Below, piece after piece: positions 1,293 to 17,407 of a DNA stretch of 42,973 nucleotides. The translations under genes were made by a program, and so were the position numbers. The DNA is from Kagunavirus LM08P1, in the sequence record OZ035812.1; one strand, given 5' to 3'. Every line of letters begins with the position of its first letter. Positions within the stretch are counted from its first letter, which is position 1. A model generated the notes under the pieces. That model ran no database searches, was not told the DNA's origin, and saw nothing but the letters and a program-made list of their open reading frames with translations.

Positions 1293-2768
1293 ATGTTAAC
1301 TATGAACGGTCAGAATCAGGGTGTTAAGACAAAACACCGGGAATGGCTGCATCACTTCGATAAATGGCAGAAGGTACGCCACGCGCTGGAAGGCGACCTT
1401 ATTCGCTATCTGCGCAACGTCGGGAAGAACGAACCTGACCCGACCTACGCAGCCCAGCGCCAGGAAGAATACGAGAACGGTGCTATCTGTTACAACTTCA
1501 CTAAACGTACCCTGGCGGGGATGACGGGGTCAGTGATGCGCAAAGACCCTGAGCAGATTATCCCGCCTGAACTTGAGTACCTGTTGCACAACGCTGACGG
1601 TTCGGGTGTAGGGCTGTGGCAGCACGCGCAGGATACGTTAATGGAGATTGACTCGATAGGACGCGGTGGGTTGCTGGTGGATGCCCCGGAAACAGCCGCA
1701 GCAACGGCGGCAGAGCAGAACGCGGGATTATTAAACCCGGTAATCGCATTCTATACCGCGGAGAACATTATCAACTGGAGACTCACCCGCATCGGTTCAG
1801 TGAACCGCGTGACGATGGTTGTATTGCGTGAGGCATGGGAATACTCGGAACCAGGCGCTGAGTTTGAAACAAAATTCGGCGAGCAATACCGCGTCCTTGA
1901 CCTGATTGACGGTCGCTACCGCCAGCGCATCTACCGCTTCGATGCCGAAGGTGGCGCACAGGATGAAGTAATCGAAATCTTCCCGGAACTCGGCGAACAG
2001 TTGCGCGGTAAAATCCCGTTCACGTTCATTGGCGCAAGCAACAACGACGCCACTATAGACGATGCGCCTTTACTGCCGTTAGCTGAGCTAAATATAGGAC
2101 ACTTCAGAAATTCGGCCGATGTGGAAGAGGCCAGCTTTATAGTAGGTCAACCGACACTGTTCATTGCCCCCGGCGAGAACATGAGCATGGAGCAGTGGAA
2201 AGAAGCCAACCCACACGGCATACGCATGGGGTCGCGTTCAGGCCACAACATCGGCTCCGGCGGAAATGCGTTTCTGGTTCAGGCGGCGGAAACTAACCTC
2301 GCCAAACAGAATATGCTGGATAAAGAGAATCAGGCCATCCAGATTGGCGCGCAGCTTATCACCCCGACGCAGCAAATCACCGCGGAATCGGCCCGCCTGC
2401 AACGCGGCGCCGACACGTCAGTCATGGCAACAATCGCACGTAACGTAAGCATGGCGTATACCGATGCGTTGCGCTGGGTGGCCGCGATGCTAGGGCTGCG
2501 TGAGGATACTGAAATTGAGTTCAAGCTGAATATGGAGTTCTTCCTGCAACCTATGACCGCTCAGGACCGTGCACAGTGGATGGCTGACATTAACGCAGGC
2601 CTGTTACCGGCTACTGCTTACTATGCTGCGTTGCGTAAGGCTGGCGTAACTGACTGGACCGACGAAGACATTCAGAACGCTATTGAAGACGCGCCGCTGC
2701 CGTTAGGCGCTGTTACTCAGGTGGCGGGAGAGATTCCGCAGTCGGCGCAGCAACAACAATCGGAGTAG
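1293..2768 (+). CDS. portal protein
   Basis: 491 aa ORF immediately after terminase large subunit; RBS GAGGA upstream; position and size typical of portal; no motif-level proof. Confidence 0.7.
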   Translation: MLTMNGQNQGVKTKHREWLHHFDKWQKVRHALEGDLIRYLRNVGKNEPDPTYAAQRQEEYENGAICYNFTKRTLAGMTGSVMRKDPEQIIPPELEYLLHNADGSGVGLWQHAQDTLMEIDSIGRGGLLVDAPETAAATAAEQNAGLLNPVIAFYTAENIINWRLTRIGSVNRVTMVVLREAWEYSEPGAEFETKFGEQYRVLDLIDGRYRQRIYRFDAEGGAQDEVIEIFPELGEQLRGKIPFTFIGASNNDATIDDAPLLPLAELNIGHFRNSADVEEASFIVGQPTLFIAPGENMSMEQWKEANPHGIRMGSRSGHNIGSGGNAFLVQAAETNLAKQNMLDKENQAIQIGAQLITPTQQITAESARLQRGADTSVMATIARNVSMAYTDALRWVAAMLGLREDTEIEFKLNMEFFLQPMTAQDRAQWMADINAGLLPATAYYAALRKAGVTDWTDEDIQNAIEDAPLPLGAVTQVAGEIPQSAQQQQSE

Positions 2769-10572: not shown

Positions 10573-10985
10573 TGGGCTACTTTGAGGACTTAACCAAAGC
10601 GTTCGATGTGCCGCTGGTAGCCTTCGGAACCGCCAACGGCATCAAGGTTGCGCTTGAAAACATCGACGCGCCGACATCAACCGATACGCCGTATCTGGCG
10701 AGTTACATGTTGCTGGCGGATACGGAACAGGCTGATTTGTTCTTCACGGAACAACGCGCCGGTGTTTATCAGGTCGACATTAACTACGCATCGGTGAAAG
10801 GTAGCGCGCCAATCAATAAAATGGCAGACTTACTTAACACGGCGTTTAAAGCAGGTAAGTCATTTTCACGTAACGACATCTGCGCCGAGGTTCAATCGGT
10901 AAGCCTGGGGCCGCTGATTGTAGAAAACGGATGGGCCAAAAGACCATTGTCAATTAACTTTATTGCATTCACCAAGAGGCTGTGA
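10569..10985 (+). CDS. tail terminator / completion protein (putative)
   Basis: 138 aa immediately upstream of major tail protein; positional inference. Confidence 0.45.
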   Translation: MMGYFEDLTKAFDVPLVAFGTANGIKVALENIDAPTSTDTPYLASYMLLADTEQADLFFTEQRAGVYQVDINYASVKGSAPINKMADLLNTAFKAGKSFSRNDICAEVQSVSLGPLIVENGWAKRPLSINFIAFTKRL

Positions 10986-10987
10986 AT

Positions 10988-12154
10988 ATGGCTACAACTC
11001 CTTTTAAGGGCGCGAATACCGCGCAATTCTATGTGGCGGAAGTCACCCCGGGCGTAACACCGACTAACCCGGTATGGTCGCCGTTGCGTAACACAGGTGG
11101 CGTTCCCGCTATCACCCGCGACACGCTGACATCCAACGAACTGGACGGCAGCCGTGAAACTACATCCATCCGCACCGGTAACAAACAGGTTAGCGGTGAA
11201 TACGCGATCGAGCTTAGCTCTAAAAGCCAGGACGACTGGCTGGCGGGCGCTTTAGGTTCCACGTGGCAATCAGGTGTCTCTCTGTCAGGGCTGTCGATTA
11301 CCGTCGCGCCTGCAGGTAAGACATTTACACGCTCCACCGGTAGCTTTATTTCTGACGGCGTTGAAGTAGGCGACCTGATTGCGTTTACCGACTTAACCGG
11401 CGACAACGCAAAACCATTTATCGTCACTGCGGTAGAGGCACTGGTAGTGACCGGTGCGGGCATCCAGCACACTCTCACCACAGAGACCGCTACTACTGCT
11501 GCTAAGACAGGCGACAAACTGGAAACCGGTAGCCAGTGCAAGACGTTCTCTATTCTCACCTGGTACAAAGGCCAGTGCGGCGGGACTGACGCATACACGT
11601 TAACCAAAGGCGTGGAAGTTTCTGGTTTTACCGTTGAGCAGGCCGTTAACGCGATGGTAACGGGCAGCTTCCCGTTCATCGGGCGCAGCCAGGAGATTCT
11701 CACTACGCCACCGTCTGGTTCTGACTTCTCCTCTGTTACGTTTGGTGACGAGCCGTTCTCCTCGGTCGACGTTTCCGTGTTCGATGGCTCTACGCCGTTG
11801 CGTTGCGACAGCCTGACCATCACCAACGATAACAGCGCGTCCGCACAGTTCGAACTCGGCAACTCTAACGTTGCGTTTGTGGAGCGTAGCCGCGCGGCTA
11901 ACACCTTCTCCATCTCAGGCAAGCTGTATGACATGGCTATGATTCAGAAGTTTATCAACGAGCAGCAGGTAGAGATTAACTCTATTCTGGCGGGGGTAAA
12001 CGGAGCTATGTCTTTCAGCCTGAAACGCGCAGAGCTCACGGCGGTTACACCAGAAATATCCGGCCCGGAATCAATTACCCAAAGTATAGAAGGGCAGTCC
12101 ACAGGCAACCAATACCAGTCGTCTATCGTAATTCAACGTATTAGTTACGCATAA
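10988..12154 (+). CDS. major tail protein
   Basis: ORF frame from 10982 (GTG); ATG at 10988 with RBS AAGAGG; about 389 aa, T/S/G-rich; sits between neck genes and chaperone/tape-measure pair. Confidence 0.6.
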   Translation: MATTPFKGANTAQFYVAEVTPGVTPTNPVWSPLRNTGGVPAITRDTLTSNELDGSRETTSIRTGNKQVSGEYAIELSSKSQDDWLAGALGSTWQSGVSLSGLSITVAPAGKTFTRSTGSFISDGVEVGDLIAFTDLTGDNAKPFIVTAVEALVVTGAGIQHTLTTETATTAAKTGDKLETGSQCKTFSILTWYKGQCGGTDAYTLTKGVEVSGFTVEQAVNAMVTGSFPFIGRSQEILTTPPSGSDFSSVTFGDEPFSSVDVSVFDGSTPLRCDSLTITNDNSASAQFELGNSNVAFVERSRAANTFSISGKLYDMAMIQKFINEQQVEINSILAGVNGAMSFSLKRAELTAVTPEISGPESITQSIEGQSTGNQYQSSIVIQRISYA

Positions 12155-12156
12155 AA

Positions 12157-12184
12157 CTAAGGCCCCTTTCGGGGCCTTTTTCTT
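12157..12184. terminator. bidirectional intrinsic terminator
   Basis: AAGGCCCC-TTTC-GGGGCCTT hairpin with A-run upstream and T-run downstream; separates + major tail gene from - island; almost identical to terminator at 24206. Confidence 0.65.
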
Positions 12185-12413
12185 ACTCATCAATATTGCT
12201 TCGGTATTCCCGTAACTTCTCCAGACTTTCAATTGCTTCCGCTAAGTCGGTTCCGGTGTCCTTGTGTCCGCGCAAGCCCATGCACAATAGCTTCTTCAAT
12301 GCGTGCTGTAGCGCCGGGTCGCGTATATCGAAGGCGCGGAGCACATCATAAACGTCTACTGTCATAGTGCTGCCGTGAGTGTTTGTCATTGTGCGGTTGT
12401 ATTTTGAAGTCAT
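12183..12413 (-). CDS. hypothetical protein (island gene 4)
   Basis: 76 aa; start ATG 12413 overlaps stop of upstream gene (ATGA coupling). Confidence 0.5.
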   Translation of the reverse strand: MTSKYNRTMTNTHGSTMTVDVYDVLRAFDIRDPALQHALKKLLCMGLRGHKDTGTDLAEAIESLEKLREYRSNIDE

Positions 12414-12643
12414 AAATGGCTCTCATCTATAAGAACGATAACTGCCGAAATCGAAACGGCACCTACATATAAAAGACGCATCTCGGTCGGCGCTATAGCG
12501 GTAACAGCTTCGTACAGGCCCGAGAACACGGACAAATCCATAGAGATAAATGTTAAGACCGCCGCCATTCCTAGTACCGCGGTGGATAAAACCAGTAAAA
12601 CCACAACAGGCATTATGGCGAAAATCCACAAGGCTTTAATCAT
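12410..12643 (-). CDS. small membrane protein (two predicted TM helices)
   Basis: 77 aa, two long hydrophobic stretches; start ATG 12643 overlaps stop of metallophosphoesterase gene (ATGA). Confidence 0.5.
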   Translation of the reverse strand: MIKALWIFAIMPVVVLLVLSTAVLGMAAVLTFISMDLSVFSGLYEAVTAIAPTEMRLLYVGAVSISAVIVLIDESHL

Positions 12644-13770
12644 CCCAGCATCTCCGGTGAAATAGTTAAACGTGCGACCTCGCCATATTCGGCGCTATAA
12701 GTAATTACATTTGCGCTACGACCCGACATCCAGCCGCCTCTGGAGGCGTAGGCATCTTTAGCCGCCAGGGTGCGGTGTTGCTCAACAATCATGTTACGGC
12801 TTTCTACAATCTTCTGATGGTGCAGGTGGCCTACGTGGGCGTAACTGTAAACACTCTCGCCGAACGCTTTGCGGAACTTGGCAATCATAACCGGTTCGAT
12901 AGCGTCGAAGCGTGCTTTATGCCCGTGATGGAAGAACAGCGTCGTTTTGCCGTGTTGCACCATCTTGTAAACATCCGGCGACGTATCGACGAACACACGA
13001 GGCTCGTTGTCGTATAGCGTACTGAACATCTCAGCCAACCAAATCATTCCGCTTTCGTCATGATTCCCTTGCACGATAAGCAAGCGAACATTTTTATGCT
13101 TAACAAGGGCCATATCGACAACACGGCGCACCATACGAATCATGTAGCGGACGAGTTTCTGATAGCGGGTGTCAGCGTCAAGAACATGACCGCTTGCCGG
13201 TGTAACGGCGTCCAGACTATCGAAGTGCGCAAGGTCCCCCAGCAGACTAATAACTCCTGTTCCTGCGTCCGGCGCTTTCTGAAACGCCGCGTCGAACCAG
13301 CGTGAGAACAGGTCTTCCGCAATCTTCATATCCCAGTCGTCGCCGCTCTCGTCGGCCCAGGCCAGCATACCGAGATGGAAATCAGATACCGTGTAAAGAT
13401 TGAGTAGCTTGTCGTCACGTTTGGCGCGAACGGCTTTAACAGGTGCAACTGGCGTAATCTCTGACTTCATGCCTTCGATCACGGCTTTCATCAATTCAAC
13501 CTGACGTTCAGCGTCAGTGTCAGTCTTAACCCATTGCAGTTTAGTGTTGCCAAACTCATCGACAAGGGATGACGTTCCTTTAATCTTGTAGCCATCTGGC
13601 ACAAGGTGGCTAACGTCGCGCCCGTGGCCTACACCTTTCTTTGCCAGCTTCGCTTTGCGGATGCGAATAACGCGGTCTGAGATGCCATATTTACGAGCTA
13701 TATCGATAGTTTTAACTCCGGCGTTCAATTCTTCCTGTAACTGTTCGTCGGTTATTTTCTTCCGGGCCAT
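12640..13770 (-). CDS. HTH domain fused to calcineurin-like metallophosphoesterase
   Basis: 376 aa; N-terminal HTH-like segment (TIDIARKYGISDRVIRIRKAKL); metallophosphoesterase signature motifs in order: DFH, GDLAHFD, GNHDE, HHGH, GHLHH; RBS GAGGAAG. Confidence 0.75.
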   Translation of the reverse strand: MARKKITDEQLQEELNAGVKTIDIARKYGISDRVIRIRKAKLAKKGVGHGRDVSHLVPDGYKIKGTSSLVDEFGNTKLQWVKTDTDAERQVELMKAVIEGMKSEITPVAPVKAVRAKRDDKLLNLYTVSDFHLGMLAWADESGDDWDMKIAEDLFSRWFDAAFQKAPDAGTGVISLLGDLAHFDSLDAVTPASGHVLDADTRYQKLVRYMIRMVRRVVDMALVKHKNVRLLIVQGNHDESGMIWLAEMFSTLYDNEPRVFVDTSPDVYKMVQHGKTTLFFHHGHKARFDAIEPVMIAKFRKAFGESVYSYAHVGHLHHQKIVESRNMIVEQHRTLAAKDAYASRGGWMSGRSANVITYSAEYGEVARLTISPEMLG

Positions 13771-13835
13771 GCTTACTTCCTCGTGTTTAGGATTTGTCCT
13801 ATTTAACCACAGTGGATTCCTTTAAATAAAGGCAA

Positions 13836-14162
13836 CTATTTACTTTCTGCGCCTATCGCCCACCCTGTCATTACCATTTGCAGACGGGTGGCTGTCAGCA
13901 GGCTATAGAAAGCATCTCCGTTTTTCTCTACAGAACGTATTACCGTGTATGTTACGGCTTGCGGAGGCAGGCCCGATTTACCAACCTCTACGGCTGCCTC
14001 ACACTCGCGAACGGTAGAGTCCTTAAATGCCTTTACAATAGTAGGGTCGGCTCTATCAAGCACACCAGAAGTCATAAGAACGGATTCACTAAACACCTGT
14101 TCACACGGAGACCCAAAAGTAGCAAAAGACATAAAACCAAGAGCTAACACTAATTTACGCAT
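13836..14162 (-). CDS. secreted/periplasmic hypothetical protein
   Basis: 108 aa with N-terminal signal-peptide-like segment MRKLVLALGFMSFATFG; RBS GAGGAAA; first gene downstream of promoter 14187..14220. Confidence 0.5.
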   Translation of the reverse strand: MRKLVLALGFMSFATFGSPCEQVFSESVLMTSGVLDRADPTIVKAFKDSTVRECEAAVEVGKSGLPPQAVTYTVIRSVEKNGDAFYSLLTATRLQMVMTGWAIGAESK

Positions 14163-14186
14163 AATTATTTCCTCAGTAAGTTACAG

Positions 14187-14220
14187 GTGAATAGTACCCT
14201 ATTATATTGGGGTGTGCAAG
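14187..14220 (-). promoter_or_regulatory. sigma70-like promoter with palindromic operator-like core (family 1), minus-directed
   Basis: Minus strand reads TTGCAC-N17-TACTAT with TATAATAGGG in spacer; 31 of 33 positions identical to plus-strand element at 36341..36373. Confidence 0.55.
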
Positions 14221-14326
14221 TAGTGTGCTAGAATAAGTTTGCGCCTAGTGTCGCACACGAAAAGCGGGTGGTTCCCGTCTGGCGCGTCAACCTTAACCTG
14301 TAACCTCTTAACCAAAGGACTAAAGA

Positions 14327-14743
14327 ATGAAACTTTCTGATTTCTATTTTGCCGACCGCCACGCCGCCGGTACTAAAATGCCTATCCTTCTGCCCAGTGG
14401 TAAAGATTCCGGTGAATGGTTGCAGGTCATCGGCCCCGATTGTGACGCTGGTGTTCGTGCGGGCCGTGCCTACACAACGGCAATTCGACGCCTTACGGAA
14501 GAACTTGCGCCATTAGATAAAGAGTGCGAGGCGCTGAATAACTGGGCGCGCTATAATGATGAGAAGGGCTGGCGGGTGATGGACCTGAACAAGCAGCTTG
14601 CCGTGGAAATCGTCACCGGTTGGTCATTCGACGAACCATTCAGCAAAGAGGCGCTTGCTAACCTGTTCGACCAGTACAGTGGGTTGGCAGAGGCCGTAGT
14701 TAAGCATCACACCGATAGCCGTGAGAAACTCTCGGAAAAGTAA
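14327..14743 (+). CDS. tail assembly chaperone (G-like)
   Basis: 138 aa ORF immediately upstream of tape measure gene; overlapping downstream ORF in -1 frame. Confidence 0.6.
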   Translation: MKLSDFYFADRHAAGTKMPILLPSGKDSGEWLQVIGPDCDAGVRAGRAYTTAIRRLTEELAPLDKECEALNNWARYNDEKGWRVMDLNKQLAVEIVTGWSFDEPFSKEALANLFDQYSGLAEAVVKHHTDSREKLSEK

Positions 14744-15105
14744 AAGCGCTGTATGAATTTGCGCAATGGTGCTTTGTCGACCGCCACAAACGTAAGCAAT
14801 TCGACGACATCGCGGCGGGCCACCAGGCGGCTTTGATTGCAATGGGCGTGATTAAAGAACCGCAGATGAAAGAAGCGACGGGGCCGGAATGCCCCGTTTC
14901 TCTTATCGACGTGTTCGAGAAATACCGTGCCATTAAATTCCTACAGCGCGAAACAGATGATACTATCGTTATAATCCCGCGCGATGCGCTCAAATGGCAA
15001 GATTTGGTAGCGTTTCGTGATGTCGCCGGTTACGGCATAAGTTTGTTCGAAGCCGAGGTTATCATGGGCTTAGACGGAATATTTGAGGGCAGAGAAGATG
15101 GCTGA
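14725..15105 (+). CDS. tail assembly chaperone frameshift extension (T-like segment, -1 frame)
   Basis: Open frame from 14725 to stop at 15103..15105 in the -1 frame relative to 14327..14743; overlap contains GGAAAAG (14734..14740), resembling known slippery heptamers; ends overlapping tape measure start. Confidence 0.4.
   Translation, partial: ETLGKVKALYEFAQWCFVDRHKRKQFDDIAAGHQAALIAMGVIKEPQMKEATGPECPVSLIDVFEKYRAIKFLQRETDDTIVIIPRDALKWQDLVAFRDVAGYGISLFEAEVIMGLDGIFEGREDG
14734..14740 (+). other. candidate -1 programmed ribosomal frameshift slippery site (G GAA AAG)
   Basis: Located in last codons of chaperone ORF where the -1 frame is open; not a canonical X XXY YYZ heptamer, so tentative. 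Confidence 0.3.
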
Positions 15106-17407
15106 TACGGCTTCCCTAATTGCCAGAGTAAAAACAGAAGGCGCTGATGTAGCCGCTAAACAGCTTGACGCTATGGCGGCATCCGCAGACCGTGCGGACA
15201 CATCCGTAAACAAACTAACGCCGGATGTTAATAAAGTAAACTCCGCTACGTCTAAAGCGGCTTCTGACGGTTTCGCTAAATTCCGTAACGCCGCCGGGCA
15301 GGTAGGCTTCCAGGTGCAGGACATGGTCGTCCAGTTGCAGTCCGGCACGTCTGCATTCGTAGCAATCGGGCAACAAGGCTCTCAGCTTGCGGGTGCTTTC
15401 GGCCCTGGTGGCGCGGTGCTTGGGGCTGTAATTGCTCTCGCATCAGCAATTGGCGGTGTCCTGTATAAATCACTAACGGAGGCCGAAGGTAGCTCAAAAG
15501 ACCTCGAGGCCGCGCAAAAGCAGTTAAAAGACACCTTCCAACAAACGGCATCCGGCTCTCTCGAACTGACAGACGGCCTTATCCAGCTTACCCAAATAAG
15601 CCGAGAAGCGGCGGAGACTCAACTTGCTTTGGCTAAGGCTAACGCAGACCTTATCGCGCAGCAAACAGCTAAAGCCGTTCGTGAGGACGCAGAGTCGTGG
15701 GAGACGTGGAAAGCCTCCACGGCATCAGCTATCAGCCAGTACGATGCATTGGTCTCTAAAGGTGCGGATGTAGGCGACACGTTAGAAAAACTCGGTGGCA
15801 CTTACGAGGGTAACATCGTAGGCGTCAACATGCTGGCGCAGAATATCGCAGAGCTTAGCAGTAAGTTTGGGGTTAACCGTGACCAGGCGCTGGAGATGAT
15901 AGCGGCGCAGAGTGCGTTTAACAAAGAGCCAACCGCCGAGAATGCCCGTCGCATCGCCGATGTGTTTACCGACTGGCTCGGTAATACAAAACAGTTGAAC
16001 CCGGAACTTATCCGCCTGACCGACAATGCCAACAAGAACGCCACGGCACTGGAGAACGCGGAGAAGTCCGCAAACGCGGCGGCGGAGGCCCAAAAGAATC
16101 TTGGTCGTAACGTCAACTCAACAACGCAGAGATTCCAGGAACAGAACGAAGCTATCGTCAAAAACCAGCAAATCGCTATCTTAAGTGACCGCGAGCGTAT
16201 CCGTGCGCAAGCTGAACTGGATAAGCAGGCGTTCGCTAAACGTGAAGCTGTCACCAAAGAACAGATCGCCGCGTATAATGCTGCGCGTGACACGGAAGCA
16301 CAACAAGACATCGCTCGCATCGACGCTACCGAAAAAGCGAAGGCCGACCGCGAGGCCAAATCGAACGAGAAACGGCTGGCGGCACAAGCCAAACGCGAAG
16401 AAACGGCGGCTGAACGACAGAAAAAAGCGGCGGAAGATTTCCTGGCTACTGTCGACCGCACAACCGGAGATGAGATTTCGCGCATTACCGCTGCGGAAGA
16501 GCAGAAACTGGCAAAACTGGAAGAGTTTAACAGAGCTGGGACTATAAGCCAGCAGCAATACGAAAACGCCAGGACGCAGATTATGCTCTCGGCCGAACAG
16601 GCCCGCCAGGAAGAACTCGCCAAGCGAGAGAAAGAACGACAGGAGAAGAACCAGAAAGGCGAAGACTTCATGGCTCAGATTATGGGCCAAAACGCCGCTG
16701 AGCTTGAGCTTCTGGAGATTCAGGAGCAACAAAAACTGGACGTTGCTGACAGGTATCGCGAACAGAATCTGATTAACGAAGAACAGTACCAGGCCGCGGT
16801 TAATGCTATAAATGACCAGTACGCGTTAAAACGTGCTAACGCAACGGGTAACGCTTTTGGCATGATGGCGGATAATATTAAATCGTCGCTTGGCGAAGCG
16901 TCTACTGCGTACAAAGCTTTCGCTATTGCGCAGGCCACTATTGCCACATACACCTCCGCTATAGAGGCTTATAAATCTGCATCGGCTATCCCTATTGTTG
17001 GATGGGTGCTCGGGCCTGTAGCCGCCGCCGCCGCCGTAGCCGCGGGGCTCGCAAACATTGGCAAAATTCGTTCGGCCCGTGAGCAGGGCGGTAACTTAGC
17101 TGCAGGTCAGTTATCTACTATCGCGGAACGTAACAAGCCAGAAGTTATTATGCCTGCAGGGGCGTCACGCGTCCGTACCGCAGAACAGATGCGCCAGATT
17201 ATGGGCGAGAACGGCAACAAGTCAGGCGGTGACAGCGTTACAATCGTCAACAACACCACCGGACGTGTTGATTCCGCCGTTACAGAGCGTGACGACGAAG
17301 GGCGGTTACGTGTTATCATCAGCGAAACAGTATCGGCGGCGTTACAAGACAGCAACAGTGCAATCTCTAAGTCACGCCGTGCTACACGAAACCAGCCGGG
17401 GTATTAA
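15098..17407 (+). CDS. tail tape measure protein
   Basis: ORF frame opens 15083 (TTG); ATG 15098 after GAGGG; about 769 aa, Ala/Gln/Glu-rich with long predicted helical regions; follows chaperone pair. Confidence 0.8.
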   Translation: MADTASLIARVKTEGADVAAKQLDAMAASADRADTSVNKLTPDVNKVNSATSKAASDGFAKFRNAAGQVGFQVQDMVVQLQSGTSAFVAIGQQGSQLAGAFGPGGAVLGAVIALASAIGGVLYKSLTEAEGSSKDLEAAQKQLKDTFQQTASGSLELTDGLIQLTQISREAAETQLALAKANADLIAQQTAKAVREDAESWETWKASTASAISQYDALVSKGADVGDTLEKLGGTYEGNIVGVNMLAQNIAELSSKFGVNRDQALEMIAAQSAFNKEPTAENARRIADVFTDWLGNTKQLNPELIRLTDNANKNATALENAEKSANAAAEAQKNLGRNVNSTTQRFQEQNEAIVKNQQIAILSDRERIRAQAELDKQAFAKREAVTKEQIAAYNAARDTEAQQDIARIDATEKAKADREAKSNEKRLAAQAKREETAAERQKKAAEDFLATVDRTTGDEISRITAAEEQKLAKLEEFNRAGTISQQQYENARTQIMLSAEQARQEELAKREKERQEKNQKGEDFMAQIMGQNAAELELLEIQEQQKLDVADRYREQNLINEEQYQAAVNAINDQYALKRANATGNAFGMMADNIKSSLGEASTAYKAFAIAQATIATYTSAIEAYKSASAIPIVGWVLGPVAAAAAVAAGLANIGKIRSAREQGGNLAAGQLSTIAERNKPEVIMPAGASRVRTAEQMRQIMGENGNKSGGDSVTIVNNTTGRVDSAVTERDDEGRLRVIISETVSAALQDSNSAISKSRRATRNQPGY

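Follow-up and report, generated by a model that had tools for sequence, protein, structure and literature searches.

A predicted −1 ribosomal frameshift at a conserved A_AAG site in the tail assembly chaperone genes of a Kagunavirus

The DNA analysed here, referred to below as the window, is a stretch of 42,973 nucleotides from Kagunavirus LM08P1 (OZ035812.1), an E. coli siphophage of the Guernseyvirinae. A query of 1.1 kb around the locus of interest identified Escherichia phage 590B as the nearest genome (99.7% identity), and over the same 1.1 kb the identity to K1H, K1G-type, and BASEL Bas70-76 phages is 94-99%. The usual order of tail tube gene, G/GT, and tape measure gene is kept (Table 1), with the G/T pair directly upstream of the tape measure gene, whose start is overlapped by the end of T by 8 nt. 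The one deviation from this order is a 2.2-kb cassette on the minus strand (12183..14162), which lies between the tube gene and G and which is missing from the metagenomic relatives L026, L028, and L029, where the tube gene adjoins G on its upstream side. The cassette encodes a 376-aa metallophosphoesterase, called 'DNA repair exonuclease' in annotations of relatives, a protein of 108 aa that looks secreted, and small ORFs of membrane-like character. Given that the tube gene and G adjoin in these metagenomic relatives and are split here by a cassette on the opposite strand, G probably needs a promoter of its own within 14163..14326. A weak sigma-70-like match is present upstream of G at 14180..14208.

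Table 1. Features of the tail assembly chaperone locus and its neighbours (positions in the window)
Feature	Position	Strand	Basis or remark
Tail tube protein gene	10982..12154	+	Pfam Phage_tube_2, 133 bits; ORF list
Gene G, tail assembly chaperone	14327..14743	+	138 aa in frame 0, TAA at 14741..14743; ORF list and profile matches given in the text
Two-frame overlap	14725..14743	+	19 nt (GAAACTCTCGGAAAAGTAA); −1 frame TGA at 14722..14724
Predicted shift site G_GAA_AAG (GGAAAAG)	14734..14740	+	Conserved core A_AAG at 14737..14740
Block G-N-A-A-A-G-T, invariant among relatives	14735..14741	+	17 of 17 diverged contexts
Frame-0 stop TAA, candidate 'shifty stop'	14741..14743	+	Directly after the slip codon AAG
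T segment	14740..15105	+	−1 frame, 121 codons and TGA at 15103..15105; C-terminal half of the predicted fusion
Terminator-like GC-rich hairpin, GACGGGGCC-GGAATG-CCCCGTT then TCTCTTATCG	14877..14898 (tail to 14908)	+	Terminator scan
Tape measure protein gene	15098..17407	+	769 aa from ATG 15098; phrog_1538, E=2e-189; annotated in relatives

The G ORF, which ends with CGT GAG AAA CTC TCG GAA AAG TAA, encodes a protein that matches Pfam Phage_TAC_4 with 34.5 bits (curated cut-off 21.1) and is annotated as 'tail assembly chaperone' in K1H, Bas75, and fFiEco02. Its end is overlapped by a second ORF in the −1 frame, which has neither a conserved start codon nor a ribosome-binding site of its own; the first ATG in this frame, at 14842, has no counterpart in the alignment in some relatives, Shemara among them. 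The T segment matches Pfam Phage_TAC_18 with 62.6 bits (cut-off 27). Moreover, both products align collinearly to phrog_15027 'tail assembly chaperone', G with positions 1-138 (E=1e-65) and T with positions 140-259, and because one profile of 259 positions spans the two, it was evidently built from fused sequences. The predicted GT coding sequence, join(14327..14740,14740..15105), translates into 259 aa with the junction ...REKLSEK|VKALYEF..., in which the first codon of the −1 frame is GTA (Val), its second base being the T of the frame-0 stop TAA. A sequence search of solved structures gave no meaningful match. Trypsin cuts the predicted junction into LSEK, VK, and ALYEFAQWCFVDR, such that the junction peptide is uninformative with this protease. 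The earlier note had placed the chaperone ORF at 14327..14743 and had described a −1 frame that opens at 14725, runs to 15105, and overlaps the start of the tape measure gene; all of these coordinates are exact. At the far end of T, the strongly conserved C-terminus IFEGREDG* (15083..15105) shares its nucleotides with a Shine-Dalgarno-like element, GAGG, and with the ATG start of the tape measure gene (GAGGGCAGAGAAGATGGCTGA), and this short region is therefore under two overlapping constraints.

Any ribosomal shift that joins G to T must take place within the overlap of the two frames because nowhere else are frame 0 and frame −1 open at the same time. The same minimal overlap of 19 nt is found in K1ind3, fEg-Eco19, and the metagenomic locus L028. 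Within it lies GGAAAAG, which the earlier note had considered similar but not identical to canonical slippery heptamers, and rightly so, as it reads G_GAA_AAG in frame 0 and departs from X_XXY_YYZ in its first triplet, G-G-A; only the tetramer rule Z_ZZN holds, in the form of A_AAG. After a slip, the first triplet would be GGA against the GAA anticodon. An in-frame A_AAG preceded by a codon ending in A is found at 14735..14740 (GAA_AAG) and in 17 of 17 relatives, and such in-frame NNA_AAG pairs are rare, amounting to five among the 2920 codon pairs in the structural ORFs of the window. No other in-frame motif of the Z_ZZN or X_XXY_YYZ type occurs in the overlap. The predicted shift site is pinned to A_AAG within G_GAA_AAG, a non-canonical but deeply conserved sequence. 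Thus, while the earlier note was right that the heptamer is not a canonical one, the position of the site, which it had left uncertain, is less so than claimed because the 19 nt and the comparative data leave no candidate other than the core A_AAG, in the setting GNA_AAG_U.

A tblastn search with the conceptual fusion retrieved 501 phage records, for the most part from Jerseyvirus and Cornellvirus phages of Salmonella and Kagunavirus phages of Escherichia. Of these records, 488 contain the two halves as separate pieces in different frames, with identities as low as ~50%, and the −1 frame is therefore conserved as protein in homologues, a point that had been singled out beforehand as a check. 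A search of a large protein collection with the same query returned G-type homologues only (50-65% identity), and neither fusions nor close relatives were among the matches; these homologues are informative on the diversity of the C-terminus. Junctions were compared in 17 contexts, namely 11 diverged loci of phages and viral contigs and six more distant metagenomic lineages reached via G homologues, which together span Kagunavirus, Jerseyvirus, Cornellvirus, a Klebsiella phage, and seven metagenomic lineages. The block G-N-A-A-A-G-T is invariant at all 17 junctions, and its flanks diverge. The middle base of GNA varies to give GAA (Glu), GCA (Ala), or GTA (Val), thereby changing the penultimate residue of G; the codon before it may be TCG, ATG, CAG, TTG, TCC, AAC, TCA, or TAC, and the frame-0 stop may be TAA, TAG, or TGA. 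The −1 reading K-V-x-A-L is nevertheless kept throughout (17/17). Besides the G_GAA_AAG found here, relatives have C_GCA_AAG, A_GCA_AAG, or G_GTA_AAG. All five lineages with GAA have a G in front of it, supplied by four different codons, and those with GCA have C or A there. In 15 contexts, AAG is directly followed by the stop, which comes one codon later in the other two (L024 and L025); there, TTA or TTG (Leu) stands between AAG and the stop, yet both keep the T at +1 and the Val (GTT) of the −1 frame. Given that the −1 frame opens 19 to 97 nt upstream among the lineages, A_AAG is the sole position usable in all of them.

The same fusion protein would result if RNA polymerase slipped on the run of four A in the overlap (14736..14739), or if ribosomes shifted at another point of the overlap, but both routes fit the comparison poorly. 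Transcriptional slippage generally needs homopolymer runs much longer than four. In relatives with GCA_AAG or GTA_AAG the run is down to three, and with a run of 3-4 nt only, slippage by the polymerase was rejected. As for a ribosomal shift elsewhere, a second in-frame slip motif is lacking within the 19 nt, and nothing in the overlap apart from the invariant block is conserved across lineages. Either of these routes is therefore regarded as very improbable.

The way in which variability is distributed around the site argues that the shift is used. Upstream of it, column entropy is highest at the third position of frame 0 (1.56 vs 1.05 and 0.89), whereas from +4 to +93 it is highest at the third position of frame −1 (1.30 vs 0.64 and 0.60). 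The latter stretch precedes every ATG and TTG of the T frame in the source phage, and since the switch in variability sets in before these codons, the stretch appears to be translated in the −1 frame; as this translation starts from +4, only a shift at A_AAG could deliver ribosomes there. That the open −1 frame is a matter of chance, or a decaying feature without function, has nothing in its favour beyond the non-canonical heptamer and is scarcely credible. In dinucleotide-preserving shuffles of 14740..15102, the frame stayed open for 121 codons in 10 of 5000 cases (0.2%), and the number of matching records at identities as low as about 50%, the variation concentrated at third positions, and the match to a curated Pfam family effectively refute this explanation.

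The only serious rival to a frameshift is the separate synthesis of T, either by re-initiation, after termination at the stop of G, at CTG 14749 (TTG in Jerseyviruses) or by internal initiation at TTG 14833 or ATG 14842. This is how T is presented in several GenBank records, which list it as a gene of its own. Its start is a CTG located 6 nt past the stop in Bas75 (PQ850596), a TTG at that place in f18SE (NC_028698), SETP13 (KF562864), and Shashou (MK931440), and an internal codon in 590B (MW722821), Ivi (PV841871), and fEg-Eco19 (NC_073314). The sequence offers it some footing as well, since the Leu codon YTG 6 nt past the stop is conserved and, together with the GCG before it, is invariant in 17/17 contexts with third positions included, and in Jerseyvirus-type sequences the TTG is preceded by AGGA at a distance of 12 nt. 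In the source phage, by contrast, the codon is CTG, with only GGA upstream. CTG is commonly considered to initiate translation very poorly in E. coli. Re-initiation would also leave unexplained why A_AAG is invariant and preceded by a codon that always ends in A even as the residue changes, and why L024 and L025 keep the T at +1 and the Val although that T is no longer part of the stop. Starts within T fare no better, given that the internal Met is not conserved and that coding selection in frame −1 acts on the 33 residues before it. In addition, the T of lambda is functional only as a fusion with G (review PMC5009743). Taken together, separate synthesis is quite improbable. The invariance of GCG-YTG itself (GCGCTG at 14746..14751, +6..+11, Ala-Leu in the −1 frame) exceeds what amino-acid constraint predicts and could reflect a role as a 3′ context element of the shift, as part of a 3-bp GC stem of low stability, or as a codon for re-initiation.

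It is therefore very probable that a −1 frameshift of the G/GT type yields a short and a long chaperone from a single start. The frameshift itself is a prediction, with slippage read from the anatomy of the locus, homology, conservation, and the switch of frame in selection. The G/GT arrangement proposed in the earlier note is upheld by the matches to Phage_TAC_4/Phage_TAC_18 and phrog_15027, by GNAAAGT in all contexts, by the frame-switched periodicity, and by a protein from K1H that is identical to the predicted fusion. In the proposed course of events, most ribosomes would read ...GAA AAG, stop at TAA, and release the 138-aa G. A small fraction would slip back by one base on A_AAG, the tRNA-Lys re-pairing from AAG to AAA; in the source phage, the tRNA-Glu may also re-pair from GAA to GGA, for which one G-U pair would be needed. 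The shifted ribosomes would then read GTA AAA GCG CTG... up to 15105 and produce the 259-aa G-T fusion (...SEK|VKALYEF...). Because the GCA lineages allow no re-pairing in the P site, slippage of the Lys tRNA appears to be the common denominator. The adjacent stop may supply a pause as a 'shifty stop', although it is not strictly required because L024 and L025 have a sense codon before the stop. The roles of the two products are assigned by homology and by analogy with gpG and gpGT of lambda: many copies of G and a few of GT would coat the tape measure protein, the T domain would bring in the tail tube protein, and neither G nor GT would be present in the virion.

Searches for a stimulatory element were negative. 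The fold of 14741..14840 has a z-score of +0.98, the consensus fold of nine diverged homologues has three invariant pairs at −0.43 kcal/mol and no covariation, and the folds of +5..+64 in individual homologues have z-scores from −1.0 to +1.6, scattered around 0. On these three grounds, a conserved hairpin or pseudoknot downstream of the site was rejected. Inspection by eye of the aligned 50 nt upstream found no conserved Shine-Dalgarno-like (GGAG-like) element. No tetramer shifts more readily in E. coli than A_AAG, and reporters carrying it shift at only ~0.15% in the absence of a stimulator and at up to 5.6% with a strong pseudoknot (PMC4066793). NNA_AAG sites are used naturally in IS1222 and occur in cdd of B. 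subtilis, with an efficiency that is modulated by the identity of the preceding codon (PMC5009743). The shift rate here is probably low, at most a few per cent. A low rate would fit the need, as the G:GT ratio in lambda is about 30:1 (PMC5009743).

The reference system is the gpG/gpGT shift of lambda at G_GGA_AAG, together with the tail-chaperone frameshift that is conserved in long-tailed phages (Levin 1993; Xu, Hendrix & Duda 2004; both cited in PMC5009743). As in lambda, two overlapping ORFs lie directly upstream of the tape measure gene, the second of which is in the −1 frame and lacks a convincing start, the shift falls near the 3′ end of G, the A-site AAG would re-pair to AAA, and a short abundant product would be accompanied by a rare fusion. 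The slip codons differ. The P-site codon is GAA preceded by G, rather than GGA preceded by G, and because the first triplet does not consist of three identical bases, its re-pairing would need a G-U pair; the sister lineages with GCA_AAG go further in that they allow no P-site re-pairing at all. Unlike in lambda, no further sense codon separates the slip codon from the stop, and an inverted cassette separates the tube gene from G. The comparison with lambda concerns the arrangement and the slip site, the families of G and T here being Phage_TAC_4 and Phage_TAC_18.

Closer to the present site in sequence are the characterized NNA_AAG sites, that is, A_AAG in reporters, G_CGA_AAG in IS1222, and A_CGA_AAG in Bacillus subtilis cdd (PMC5009743, PMC4066793). 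In these, too, only the Lys tRNA re-pairs cognately, the preceding codon ends in A, and low efficiency is expected. In contrast to the present site, for which no conserved structure was found, they required a hairpin or pseudoknot on the 3′ side or had their shifting measured in its presence; in addition, the preceding codon here is GAA, GCA, or GTA, not CGA. The structure-stimulated −1 signals of dnaX, IS911, and IS3 type have a hairpin or pseudoknot 5-9 nt downstream, a Shine-Dalgarno-like stimulator upstream, or both, features that were not found in conserved form at the present site. The direct contact of slippery codon and stop in 15 of the 17 lineages recalls the 'shifty stop' type of frameshifting (Weiss et al. 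1987, cited in PMC5009743; RF2 and antizyme for +1); slow decoding of the stop could let the tRNA-Lys slip. In contrast, the well-studied natural cases are +1 shifts, whereas the shift here is −1, and in two lineages TTA or TTG comes before the stop.

At the level of annotation, the fusion is already known, having been deposited for close relatives. An exact-sequence look-up showed that the predicted fusion is letter for letter the K1H ORF19B protein (ADA82316.1 / YP_009168853.1), named 'tail assembly chaperone', and the same K|V junction is found in ORF22B of K1ind2/3 (ADA82419.1 / ADA82468.1), FE2_026 of fFiEco02 (QNO11587.1), and gp24 of Shemara (QEA10354.1). The records with an annotated fusion carry two-piece joined CDS features, and the junction of these fusions was deduced from exact identity of the protein sequences. 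In the nearest genome, 590B, and in many others, the fusion is not annotated. The genome note for Shashou reports 'no canonical slippery sequence' and for that reason declines to annotate a frameshift (PMC6776780); Shashou nonetheless carries CAG_GAA_AAG_TAG. A GenBank note cites the description of the Jerseyvirinae (PMID 25663216) for a predicted frameshift. In the literature searched, we found no experimental demonstration of this frameshift for Guernseyvirinae and no paper that pairs GGAAAAG with phage frameshifting. The genome should carry the joined coding sequence given above and not a separate 'hypothetical protein' that starts with CTG or TTG, an error that is present in many Kagunavirus and Jerseyvirus records. 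What is known of tail assembly is unchanged by the finding. The family would rather offer a clean and deeply conserved natural example of a −1 shift, with a bare GNA_AAG beside a stop and no detectable RNA stimulator, and may help to train frameshift predictors, which miss sites that are not heptamers.

The T segment holds a second feature, the terminator-like hairpin of Table 1, which lies ~137 nt past the shift site and is not required for the frameshift. Most of the 17 lineages (L018, L019, L024, L025, L028, L029, and others) have a GC-rich hairpin with a T-run at this position, often a much stronger one, as in K1ind3 (GGGGTGGGCC-AGAATG-CCCGCCCC TTTTTAT). In AG11, the peptide at this place differs, and so does the hairpin. 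In nine of the 17 lineages, the stability of the region exceeds that of at least 97% of synonymous-codon shuffles, and the hairpin is absent in the Jerseyvirus clade and in Shemara. The RNA of the T segment would be mostly untranslated because nearly all ribosomes leave at the stop of G. One may speculate that Guernseyvirinae make GT through a minimal GNA_AAG_U at the stop, with no structure, and that the hairpin in T serves as a partial terminator or 3′ stabiliser that favours G over the tape measure, a combined proposal that we consider rather unlikely. If true, the hairpin would set G well above the tape measure and distal tail proteins, and recoding and transcription attenuation would share one segment of 360 nt.

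Outside the compared contexts, a distant G homologue (29% identity) is found in Serratia phage Tlacuache (NC_074757, about 1300..1340). It ends with ...GGC_CGA_AAG_GGT_CGG_AAA_TAA, and a long open −1 frame runs into the next gene; the record has two separate hypothetical proteins. The in-frame C_CGA_AAG is of the hexamer type of IS1222, but it lies four codons before the stop. This case (L023 in our set) suggests that A_AAG-type sites may be used more widely in the chaperone family.
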